Assembly: GCA_963807785.1 (NCBI GenBank)
Contig: CAWEEC010000092.1
Span: 6,309-70,308 of the forward strand
Direction of reading: 5' to 3'
Length of the DNA: 64,000 nucleotides
From: an uncultured Gammaproteobacteria bacterium
Lineage (GTDB): Bacteria; Pseudomonadota; Gammaproteobacteria; SZUA-229
The notes below the pieces were generated by a model. That model ran no database searches and was not told the DNA's origin. It was given only the letters and a program-made list of their open reading frames with translations. Both the position numbers and the translations under genes were made by a program. Shown one piece after another: positions 51,101 to 55,802 of the stretch. How positions within the stretch are numbered: position 1 is the stretch's first letter; every line of letters starts with the position of its first letter.

Positions 51101-51966
51101 TTAAACAGCTGCAGCACCACTGACGATTTCGGAAATTTCCTGGGTAATCGCGGCCTGTCTGGCTTTGTTATAAACGGTTTGTAATTCTTTAATTATGTCG
51201 CCGGCATTATCTGTTGCGCTCTTCATCGCAACCATGCGGGCTGACATTTCACTGGCAATATTCTCAACCAGGCCCTGGTAGACCTGGGACTCGATGAAGC
51301 GGAACATCAGGCCATCAATGATGTGCCTGGCCTCGGGCTCATAGATATAGTCCCAGTGGTGCTCCAGCTCCTGGTCAAGCTCACCGCTGATGGGAACCAT
51401 CTGGTGAATTGTCGGCTGCTGCGTCATGGTATTAACAAATTCGTTATGCACTAGATAGAGGCGATCAATTTTGCCTTCGTCATAGGCATCCAGCATCACC
51501 TTAACGGTACCAATCAGGTCTTCCATCGAGGGATTGTCACCCAGATGATCCACCTGGGCCACCAGCTTGCACTTGAAACGGCCGAAAAAACCTGACCGCT
51601 TTTTTGCCAATGGCACACACATCCACTTCAACACCCTGGCTGTCCCATTCCATCATCTCTCGTACCGTCGCCTTGAACATGTTTGTATTCAAACCGCCGC
51701 AGAGGCCGCGATCGGTGGAAACGATGATGTAGCCAACACGATTTACTTGCTCGCGATCACTCAAATAAGGATGTTTGTACTCGGGATGGGCCTGCGCCAG
51801 ATGCGCCAGCACGTTGCGGATTTTTTCGGCATACGGGCGCGCAGGCATGCATACGGTCCTGTGCTTTACGCATTTTACTCGCAGCAACCATTTCCATGGC
51901 CTTGGTGATCTTCTGAGTATTCTGAATACTCTTGATCTTGGTGCGTATTTCTTTTGCGCCTGCCAT
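51101..51966 (-). pseudogene. atpG: F1 ATP synthase gamma subunit, interrupted by two +1 frameshifts
   Basis: Three overlapping fragments together rebuild a 287-aa AtpG colinear with E. coli. The span is 866 nt (3n+2). The extra bases are near 51843 (GCC-T-GCG) and in the A6 run at 51585..51590 (T6 on the coding strand). Confidence 0.9.
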
Positions 51967-51997
51967 TTCTTTATCCCGTTATCCTGTTATTTCTCGC

Positions 51998-53541
51998 TTA
52001 ATAAACGCCGTTAGTCTTGAAGTCATCCAGCGCCTTACGCATGGCCGCTTCGATGTCATCATCGTAGTCACCGGTCTCATTGATCTTGTCCAGCAAATCA
52101 GCTGTTGTTGCTTTTCAGGTGCGCCTGCATGGCGGCTTCAAAATCAACAATTTTGTTGGTCTCAACATCATCAAGATAGCCTTCGTTGGCAGCGAACAGT
52201 GAGAACGCCATTTCAGCCACCGTCATTGGCGAGTACTGCGACTGTTTCATCAGCTCGGTGACACGCTCACCACGCTCCAGCTGTGCGCGTGTGGTATCAT
52301 CCAGGTCGGATGCAAACTGTGCGAATGCCGCCAGCTCACGGATACTGGGCCAGTGCCAGGCGAACACCACCACCAAGTTTCTTAACGATCTTGGTTTGTG
52401 CGGCACCACCAACGCGGGATACTGACAGGCCTGCGTTTATCGCAGGGCGAATACCGGCGTTGAACAAATCGCTTTCAAGAAAGATCTGTCCGTCTGTAAT
52501 CGAAATCACGTTGGTTGGTACGAAAGCGGAAACGTCACCGTCCTGGGTCTCGATAATCGGCAACGCGGTCAACGAGCCGGTCTTGCCTTTGACTTCGCCG
52601 TTAGTGAACTTTTCCACATACTCGGCGTTTACGCGTGATGCGCGCTCCAGCAGGCGTGAATGCAGATAGAACACATCACCCGGATAGGCTTCACGACCTG
52701 GCGGGCGACGCAGCAACAGCGAAACCTGGCGATAAGCCCAGGCCTGCTTGGTCAGATCATCATAAATAATCAGCGCGTCCTGACCGCGGTCACGGAAATA
52801 TTCACCCATGCTGCAGCCGGAATAGGGTGCGATGAACTGCATCGCGGCTGACTCGGCAGCGGTAGCTGCTACGATAATGGTGTGTTGCATGGCATCGTGC
52901 TCTTCCAGCTTGCGCAAGATGTTGGAAACGGTTGATGCCTTCTGGCCAACCGCAACATAGATACATTTGATACCGGATTTTGCCTGGTTGATAATCGCAT
53001 CGATGGCAACGGCTGTCTTACCTGTCTGGCGGTCGCCGATGATCAGCTCGCGCTGGCCTCGCCCGATCGGCACCATGGAGTCGATCGACTTCAGCCCGGT
53101 CTGAACCGGCTGGTCAACGGACTTACGCTCAATCACACCCGGCGCAATCTTTTCAATTGGCGCTGATTCCTTGCTATCGATAGGGCCCTTGCCGTCAATC
53201 GGCCTTCCCAGTGCATCAACCACGCGGCCAAGCAGGGCTTCGCCAATAGGCACTTCGAGAATACGGCCTGTGCACTTGGCGGTGTCGCCTTCTGACAAAT
53301 GGCCGTAGGCACCCAGCACGACGGCACCGACCGAGTCACGCTCAAGGTTAAGCGCCATGGCATAGGTATCGCCCGGCAATTCGATCATTTCACCCTGCAT
53401 GGCATCTGCCAGGCCATGGATTCGAAGAATGCCGTCAGTCAGACTAACCACGGTACCTTCGGTACGTGCCTCGACTGTCGAATCGAAACTCTCGATTCTG
53501 GATTTAATGAGTTCACTGATTTCAGATGGATTCAGCTGCAT
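51998..53541 (-). pseudogene. atpA: F1 ATP synthase alpha subunit, interrupted by two +1 frameshifts
   Basis: A 401-aa fragment, a 104-aa fragment and an unlisted C-terminal tail ([34 protein letters not shown]) rebuild 513 aa. The span is 1544 nt (3n+2). The extra bases are near 52340/52341 and 52103. Confidence 0.9.
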
Positions 53542-53553
53542 TTTAATTTCCTC

Positions 53554-54090
53554 TTAACGGCTCAAATTTATCGCCAGCGACTCGAGCTGGGATTTCATTG
53601 AACCATCGATAATTGTGTCTCCGGCCTTGATAACAACGCCACCAATAAGTGATTCATCGGTTGATGTGGTAATTGATACATCACGGCCCAGTTTGCTTTT
53701 CAACATGTCGGTAATGGCCTGTTCCTGTTCGCCGCTGAGTGCGAATGCAGAAATCACCTGGGCTTCAATTTTTCCCTCGGCTTCTGCGCGGTAGGTTTCA
53801 AACTGACGGGCAACTTCCGCAAGCGCTTTGAGGCGTCCGTTTTCGGCCATTAATCTGACCAGGTTCTGTTGCTGCTGATTGAGCTTGTCAGACAAGACTT
53901 TCAGCATCAGCTCGCCTTTCTGTTCTTTACTGAGTTGCGGCTGCTCGAGCACGTCCTGCATGCCTGCATCAGATGCGACTGCAGCCATCAATGCCAGTGC
54001 CTCATCCCAGCTATCGACAGATGCTGTCTGGGTTGCAAGCGCATAAACCGCGCGGGCATAGGGACGTGCTGTAGTGGTGTAGTCTGCCAT
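53554..54090 (-). CDS. atpH: F1 ATP synthase delta subunit
   Basis: 178 aa, OSCP/delta family, correct operon position. Confidence 0.93.
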   Translation of the reverse strand: MADYTTTARPYARAVYALATQTASVDSWDEALALMAAVASDAGMQDVLEQPQLSKEQKGELMLKVLSDKLNQQQQNLVRLMAENGRLKALAEVARQFETYRAEAEGKIEAQVISAFALSGEQEQAITDMLKSKLGRDVSITTSTDESLIGGVVIKAGDTIIDGSMKSQLESLAINLSR

Positions 54091-54108
54091 GGTGCGTCAG
54101 TCTCCAGC

Positions 54109-54579
54109 CTAAAGCTGTGCCGCCAGGTCATCGAGCGCGCTTGAGTGCGCTGCATTATCGACTTCGCGCTTGAGCACCTTCTCTGCACCGGCAATTGCCA
54201 GCGTGACGACTTCCTTGCGTAAATGCTCGCGCGCGCGATTAACTTCCTGCTCGATTTCAGCATTGGCTCCAAGCTTGATACGCTCGGCTTCAGTTCTTGC
54301 GTCACCCTTGGCTTCATCGACTATTTCAGTCGCACGTTTCTGCGCCTGCGCAATAATGTCCGCCGCCTGGCCCTTGGCCTTTTTCAACTGTTCAGCGACT
54401 TTTTTCTCAGCCAGTTCCTGTTCATGCTGTCCACGTTCCGCTGCAGCCAGGCCATCTGCAATCTTTTTCTTGCGCGCAGTCAGTGCGTTGACAAGGGGTG
54501 GCCACACGAAGGCGTAACAGAACCACACAAACACGGCAAAAGTGATCGATTGCCCAATCAGCGTTAAATTGATATTCAT
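54109..54579 (-). CDS. atpF: Fo ATP synthase b subunit
   Basis: 156 aa with an N-terminal TM helix and a long charged helix. Confidence 0.93.
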
Positions 54580-54610
54580 ACGCTAGTACCGTTTCTGATT
54601 ATGTCGCTTG

Positions 54611-54850
54611 TTATCCGGCAACAGCGAAAATGACGTAGAAAGCGACACCAACCGCGATCATTGGAACCGCGTCAGTCAGACCCATCATCAGGAAGAACTG
54701 GCCACGCAGCAGCGGGATAAGCTCAGGTTGACGGGCAGCGCCTTCAAGAAAACGGCCACCCAGTACACCAATACCGATGGCCGCACCAAGGGCACCCAGA
54801 CCCATCATCAGCGCGCCTGCGATGTACAGCATTGCAGTTACTTCAGTCAT
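54611..54850 (-). CDS. atpE: Fo ATP synthase c subunit
   Basis: 79 aa hairpin proteolipid ([12 protein letters not shown]...[10 protein letters not shown]). Confidence 0.95.
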
Positions 54851-54889
54851 TGCTTTTCTCCTAATAAAAAATACTTAATTAATTCTGTG

Positions 54890-55802
54890 TTAGTGACCTT
54901 CGTCAGTCTGGTAGGCCAGATCCATATAGACGATGGTCAATACCATAAAGATGTAGGCCTGCAGGGTAATAATCAGGATGTGAAAAATCGCCCACCCCAT
55001 TTGCAGCACACCACCAAATAGTCCGAGTAGCCAGACCGCCGCCATACATCAGTGCAATCAGGATAAAAATCATTTCACCGGCGAACATGTTGCCGTACAA
55101 GCGCAGCGACAGTGATAAAGGTTTTGCCAGTAGCGCAACGAATTCAAGCACGAAGTTGATCGGGATAAACACCAGCTGGAGTATCTTGTTGTTTGAACTG
55201 AATGGATGCAGGGTGAGCTCGCCGGCAAAGCCAATCGGGCCCTTGATCTTGAAGCTGTAGAAAATGGTCAGTGCAAACACGGCCAGCGCCATGCCAAAGG
55301 TCGCGTTGGGATCGGTCGACGGCACAACCTTGAAAAACACGTGATGCGGATCCATGCCAAACACATGGTGGCCGATCAGGGCAGCTATCTGCGGCAACCA
55401 GTCAACCGGGATCAGGTCCATGAAGTTGATCAGGAACACCCAGATAAATATGGTCAGCGCCATCGGGGCAACCATCGGGTTTCTGCCGCTGAAAGCGCCT
55501 TTGACACTGGAATCGACGAACTCGACAATCATCTCAACAAAGTTCTGCATGCCCCCAGGCACGCCCGTGGTCGCATTCTTGGCCACTTTTCTAAACAGGT
55601 ACAGGAACAGAACCCCGAGAATAATCGACCAGAACATGGTGTCGACATGAATTGCCATGAAGCCCATCTCCCTGGCTTCCTGCGCATTGTGAGCAAGACC
55701 CCAGTGACCGGCGTGTTCATGACCTTGCGGAAACTTGCCATAGGTAAGGTTCTGCAAATGGTGCTTGATGTATTCGCCTGCGGTCTGGCCTTCACCCGAC
55801 AT
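54890..55802 (-). pseudogene. atpB: Fo ATP synthase a subunit, interrupted by one +1 frameshift near the C-terminus
   Basis: After ...[12 protein letters not shown] the listed frame turns to nonsense. Shifting one base near 55031 restores [46 protein letters not shown]. The span is 913 nt (3n+1). Start is ATG 55802. Confidence 0.9.

Follow-up and report, generated by a model that had tools for sequence, protein, structure and literature searches.

Five extra bases in the F1Fo ATP synthase operon of a gammaproteobacterial metagenome bin are very probably consensus errors

Gene-fragmenting indels are documented for long-read assemblies (Watson & Warr, bioRxiv 10.1101/285049; Kastor, PMC12007338), and the F1Fo ATP synthase operon atpIBEFHAGDC treated here presents a case much like them. 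As in the reported cases, a consensus that is good in other respects has single-base indels dispersed through it, conserved genes are cut into colinear overlapping open reading frames (ORFs) and show no further damage, the lesions are visible against relatives, and assembly pathologies (here, foldback contig ends) occur alongside. The operon lies in a window, meaning the whole 64,000-nucleotide stretch of DNA that was analysed, which is contig C92:6309-70308 of the genome under study (G000: 3.54 Mb, 127 contigs, 93% complete, 8% contaminated), a metagenome bin. Three genes of the deposited operon, atpG, atpA and atpB, are put out of frame by five one-base insertions. These extra bases are very probably consensus errors of the deposited assembly and not the marks of dead genes, and the F1Fo ATP synthase encoded in the organism's mnmG-rsmG-parAB-atpIBEFHAGDC region is most likely intact. 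We favor this reading, which rests on sequence comparison, because the insertions are unique to this assembly, occur genome-wide and strike essential genes, because selection on the affected genes looks normal and the genes have no stops or deletions, and because the assembly carries signs of noisy long reads.

The five sites stand out clearly against related operons. Aligning the reverse complement of window positions 51000-56000 with seven same-genus operons (MAFFT; 79-86% DNA identity) gives exactly five one-base columns inside coding DNA that are occupied by the window alone, and the same five columns are recovered with 11 relatives. An earlier note, made by a model from the sequence alone, had called two such insertions in atpG, two in atpA and one in atpB; all five are borne out, each of its positions falling 1-5 nt from the aligned site. 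The sites are as follows.

51593, minus strand: extra A in atpG (coding strand GTC-A-GGT), 3 nt upstream of a T6 run at 51585-51590; absent in all relatives
51842, minus strand: extra G in atpG (coding strand CCT-G-CGC); absent in all relatives
52100, minus strand: extra T in atpA (coding strand AGC-T-GAT), which produces a TGA directly; absent in all relatives
52343, minus strand: extra A in atpA (CAGT-A-TCC), or alternatively one C of the CC at 52340-52341
55029, minus strand: extra T in atpB (coding strand GGC-T-ACT), where the codon of the relatives is TCT, ACT, GCT or CCT

Comparison with the orthologous operons of relatives, a check that the earlier note had proposed, finds all of them without the extra bases. 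Dropping the A at 51593 yields the relatives' VGFFGRF exactly. With each insertion at its best placement, none of the five lies inside a homopolymer. The suggestion that one site was the T6 run, and that two more were base doublings, is not upheld in the first case (the A at 51593 is 3 nt upstream of the run), and of the doublings only 52343 can still be read as one (CC). Read in the frame of the relatives, atpG, atpA and atpB have no internal stop, in line with the claim that the fragments show no other damage.

Apart from these five bases, the locus is a canonical F1Fo ATP synthase operon beside mnmG-rsmG-parAB. All nine atp genes are present in canonical order on the minus strand of the window at 49.2-56.2 kb, downstream of mnmG, rsmG, parA and parB; the order and the neighbors match those of ten related loci, and every subunit is colinear with its NCBIfam model. 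The difference from the canonical operon is that, with five extra bases in three genes, the sequence as deposited does not keep its reading frames uninterrupted. The genes, in the order of the operon, are these.

55819..56217, minus strand: atpI, intact, 132 amino acids (aa)
54890..55802, minus strand: atpB (subunit a), two overlapping ORFs, 54903-55841 and 54890-55045
54611..54850, minus strand: atpE (subunit c), intact, 79 aa
54109..54579, minus strand: atpF (subunit b), intact, 156 aa
53554..54090, minus strand: atpH (delta), intact, 178 aa
51998..53541, minus strand: atpA (alpha), three pieces, 52336-53541, 52098-52412 and 51998-52099
51101..51966, minus strand: atpG (gamma), three overlapping ORFs, 51757-51966, 51537-51887 and 51101-51634; 287 aa in relatives
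49679..51058, minus strand: atpD (beta), intact, 459 aa; ratio of nonsynonymous to synonymous substitution rates (dN/dS) 0.015-0.017 against relatives
49239..49658, minus strand: atpC (epsilon), intact, 139 aa; 135-139 aa with Pfam ATP-synt_DE at the loci of relatives

The pieces of each broken gene fall one after another along its NCBIfam profile: positions 1-48, 37-131 and 117-287 of 287 for AtpG, 2-390 and 389-469 of 503 for AtpA, and 6-227 and 231-266 of 268 for AtpB. The short C-terminal piece of atpA, 51998-52099 (the last 33 aa), is read from the sequence and matched to the relatives by DNA alignment only. The start of atpB is probably at 55802, judging by the 303-aa proteins of relatives. 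Joined up, the pieces rebuild full-length subunits of 303 aa (AtpB), 513 aa (AtpA) and 287 aa (AtpG), the lengths that had been predicted from the sequence alone, and the profiles and the relatives agree with them. For example, in ten further loci AtpA is 513 aa and AtpG 287 aa throughout, nine of them have a 303-aa AtpB (the tenth has one called at 274 aa), and 119 of the 120 best AtpA homologues are 513 aa long. The six genes that had been listed as intact (atpD, atpC, atpH, atpF, atpE and atpI) do have whole ORFs.

The artefact is genome-wide but patchy, and is not local to the atp operon. A complete congener of 2.8 Mb (G004) serves as reference for a screen in which all stop-to-stop ORFs of 100 aa or longer from its whole genome are compared with the bin by tblastn, covering 1.55 Mb of orthologous coding DNA. 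The screen finds 128 frame changes in the bin, 94 of them exactly +1 and 19 of the -1 type; stricter filters leave 100, of which 75 are +1. The rate is about 0.08 frame-breaking events per kb of coding DNA, which by extrapolation would give some 250 frameshifts in the whole genome. In an 800-kb sample the bin has 40 events, as against 14 in the congener by the reverse search, and several of those 14 resemble reflections of the bin's own shifts. The genes affected include ones a cell would hardly be expected to spare: three +1 insertions lie inside 400 bp of alaS (C104:23538-23921, locus L245), mutL has a +1 insertion (C84:6357), hflK is frame-changed (C84:10900), monomeric isocitrate dehydrogenase (icd) has two events and an msbA-like ABC transporter gene three, and pyrB, uup and rnd are also frame-changed. 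Within the window, where orthologues from the congener cover 43 kb, the events are the five atp sites and two more.

35175..35195, plus strand: +1 frame change in an EnvC-like gene (35183 = C92:41491), by comparison with G004
59870..59885, minus strand: +1 insertion in mnmG (C92:66188 = 59880), by comparison with G004

No events occur in the covered parts of the window between 7 and 34 kb, in agreement with the earlier note. At the genome-wide rate about 0.3 events would be expected in 3.5 kb, where the atp operon has five. Four of these share one 1-kb bin, a count for which none of 500 Poisson simulations exceeds three, and the uneven distribution noticed earlier is thus real. The densest two clusters are that of the atp operon (four in 750 bp, five in 3.5 kb) and C94:29470-32440 (locus L244), where seven frame changes fall in 3 kb across the msbA-like ABC transporter gene and its neighbors; that is the largest 3-kb bin, and no simulation gives more than four. 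Triplets of events occur in alaS and on contigs C22 and C76. Over bins of 1-10 kb the variance-to-mean ratio is 1.3-1.8, as against 1.0 in the Poisson simulations, and the event rate differs among contigs (chi-square 69.6, 33 degrees of freedom, p = 2e-4). The earlier note had preferred a local assembly or base-calling artefact: the artefact stands, on the strength of the genome-wide +1 events and normal dN/dS, but its locality does not, given 128 events in 1.55 Mb and a cluster elsewhere that is as dense or denser. The four atpG and atpA insertions happen to be nearly evenly spaced (249, 258 and 243 bp), which may be chance. A windowed-polisher artefact, considered on account of this near-regular spacing, was dropped, as the other clusters of the genome show no such period.

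The insertions show no association with homopolymers anywhere in the genome. Candidate bases were taken as the positions whose removal best restores the protein of the orthologue. Of the 74 +1 events that were mapped, 44 have no candidate base within a run of at least two identical nucleotides. Only 12 could sit in runs of at least three, and runs of five or longer account for none. The run lengths at +1 events follow the background run-length distribution. The mutL frameshift, if real, would suggest a mutator; a mismatch-repair defect predicts a link to homopolymers, which is not seen genome-wide.

Selection on the three broken genes looks like that on intact ones. With the frame of the relatives imposed, dN/dS between the window and two relatives is 0.07-0.08 (atpB), 0.035-0.037 (atpA) and 0.044-0.05 (atpG). 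The control, a comparison of those two intact relatives with each other, gives 0.062, 0.047 and 0.052 for the same genes in turn. The unbroken neighbors atpD, atpF and atpH behave similarly. Candidates for in-frame stops number at most 20 in 310,000 aligned residues, a count restricted to long conserved genes that serves as an upper bound only, and several of them resemble post-frameshift alignment tails or non-coding frames. (A raw in-frame stop count over all tblastn alignments was unusable, being swamped by non-coding ORFs and ORF ends.) Pseudogenes do not look like this: five independent indels, unaccompanied by substitutions, stops or deletions.

The assembly itself shows how it may have been made. 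Contig end C115:1-6285 (locus L243) is a foldback palindrome, with arms 90% identical, 4.5% mismatches and 5.5% gap positions. Contig end C60:28-2647 is another (arms 89% identical, 6% gaps), as is C40:98608-101219 (arms 98% identical). In C115 and C60 the arms differ mostly by indels. Compared with the G004 orthologue, the inner arm of C115 gives an 86% match that keeps to one frame, and the match of the outer arm is split between two frames and reaches 50-55%; judged by this comparison, the outer arm is a poorly corrected copy, such as a chimeric foldback long read would give. All three contig ends are probably leftover chimeric foldback long reads. Contig ends also overlap without being identical: C1:13317-18836 matches C56:94051-99570 at 93% with no gaps, and C40:92664-98575 matches C44:1-5907 at 95% with 0.4% gaps, while some contigs (C104 and C74; C5 and C60) share several stretches of 3-9 kb at 82-89% identity. 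Taken together, these overlaps and stretches indicate that close strains and congeners went into one assembly and one bin. A bin with more than one strain or species agrees with the 8% contamination. Of the traits by which consensus indel errors of long-read assemblies are recognized, genome-wide spread, an excess over a finished relative and signs of noisy long reads are found. The link to homopolymer runs that is typical of nanopore is not, so that the error mode is either atypical or a product of polishing or merging.

A history that accommodates these observations can be proposed. The bin appears to have been built from noisy long reads (we infer the sequencing technology) of a sample holding several close strains and congeners. 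Frame-breaking indels stand in its consensus at about 0.08 per kb of coding sequence, roughly three quarters of them single-base insertions, homopolymer-independent and patchy, and the atp operon happens to lie inside one of the densest patches. The extra bases may have arisen from low local coverage, or from the merging of reads of two variants with both alleles written in series.

Several points weigh against consensus error as the explanation. The noisy foldback arm of C115 is deletion-biased, with 66 deletions to 38 insertions. Residual nanopore errors, too, are usually homopolymer deletions and not random insertions, whereas the events here are mostly insertions outside homopolymers and are patchily distributed. 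Raw error alone does not account for a consensus biased towards insertions when the noisy arm is biased towards deletions, and a step of polishing or merging would be implicated. Look-ups of exact proteins, a search for homologues and two pattern scans of metagenomes turned up no independent assembly of the same species, the closest DNA identity being at most 87.5%. Finally, the pairwise dN/dS values are taken over branches with synonymous divergence (dS) of 0.5-0.9, with which a very recent inactivation is still compatible.

One version of consensus error specifies how the bases were added: two co-occurring strains would have been collapsed with both alleles written in series (T/A becoming TA), leaving a +1 wherever the strains differ. 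We regard this as possible, though we lean somewhat away from it. In its favor, the inserted base equals the allele of some relative at a flanking column at all five atp sites, for which the null expectation is 0.39 per site and about 0.009 for five. At 52343, for example, the window's CAGTATCCGT holds together the TTC-CGT of same-genus relatives and the TAT-CG of a more distant sequence, L141. The contig-end overlaps (at 93% without gaps, and at 95% with 0.4% gaps) and the 8% contamination indicate close strains in the sample, and the patchiness agrees with strain-variable tracts. However, two of the five sites depend on that one distant sequence, and with L141 set aside the number of qualifying sites drops to three of five, short of significance; nor does the model alone explain the five-to-one excess of insertions over deletions.

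Whichever way the bases were added, a second rotary ATPase of the bin bears on whether they could be real. N-ATPase is an alternate F1Fo ATPase encoded by an operon atpDCQRBEFAG (Dibrova et al. 2010, PMC2881411). Outside the window, at C39:2100-8250 (locus L242), the bin has an operon resembling it in gene content and order, which runs beta, epsilon, a "Methanosarcina-type subunit 2" protein, a, c, b, alpha, gamma and matches the alt_F1F0 models of NCBIfam. The earlier note had reasoned that real inactivation of the atp operon would imply a second ATP synthase elsewhere or a host-dependent lifestyle. A second operon does exist, on a contig that may belong to the same organism as the window, but it is no working backup in this assembly, being frameshifted likewise: the beta gene runs through three frames in succession, the ORF for epsilon is missing its N-terminus, and the match of gamma to its profile is limited to positions 1-54 of 285. 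Below about position 2100 of C39, downstream of the truncated gamma gene, the sequence has an odd composition and gives no match to Rfam.

That the genes are real pseudogenes, the F-type ATP synthase having been lost by five independent insertions (as in a host-dependent or purely fermentative lifestyle, perhaps in a mutator), is very unlikely. The extra bases are there in the deposited sequence, mutL is frameshifted too (which would make a mutator if real), and the events are clustered and not uniform. Yet the same type of lesion occurs three times in alaS and again in pyrB, icd, hflK and the sole alternative rotary ATPase, so that the lesions are not confined to dispensable functions, and a cell with all these genes and both rotary ATPases broken should not be viable. 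Bacterial gene decay is deletion-biased, and the loss of mismatch repair gives homopolymer indels; a ratio of about 5:1 of insertions over deletions, away from homopolymers, fits neither. The low dN/dS, equal to that between intact relatives, the absence of stops and deletions, and an operon intact in all relatives likewise speak against decay. Host-restricted bacteria with pseudogenised energy metabolism would be the natural comparison, and they share with this genome several frameshifts in core genes. The bin differs in having no relaxed selection, no stops, deletions or mobile-element scars, and in that essential genes (alaS) are struck as well.

It is also highly improbable that the insertions are real products of a mutation process that is insertion-biased and homopolymer-independent, perhaps mutL-linked, with the F- and N-type ATPases and many other genes in the course of being lost and caught before substitutions could accumulate. 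Programmed recoding, in which genuine insertions would be read through by ribosomal +1 frameshifting or RNA polymerase slippage, has next to no chance of being right: although the insertion at 52100 puts a TGA right after the shift point (AGC TGA), superficially like the prfB site, no motif is shared by the five atp sites and 25 uniquely mapped sites genome-wide, at three of the five atp sites many codons intervene before the next stop in the zero frame, no atp site is in a long homopolymer that would permit slippage, the extra bases occur in no relative and hence are not conserved, and we know of no bacterium that uses hundreds of +1 sites.

The broken atp genes are very probably no real biological feature, and their value is as an assembly-quality warning. 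Annotated at face value, the genome would seem to lack ATP synthase, AlaRS, MutL and other core functions, and comparative studies would inherit from it mistaken conclusions of "pseudogene" or "reduced metabolism". The error signature (one-base, homopolymer-independent, patchy insertions, possibly at strain-variable sites) is relevant to metagenome assembly and polishing, being unlike the usual picture of homopolymer deletions.

The individual searches for sequence from the same species came out as follows. Exact-protein look-ups with AtpD and AtpF give no match, and a contig scan with AtpD, whose reach seems not to include same-genus records, returns distant taxa only. The two metagenome pattern scans, in which the site could carry or lack the extra base, give no match in the first and three distant contigs, at 66-80% identity, in the second. 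AtpE is too conserved to discriminate, an identical protein being recorded in 655 collection blocks, and the loci its look-up returns have at most 87.5% DNA identity. The best homologue of AtpA has 96% protein identity, on a contig with 79% DNA identity.

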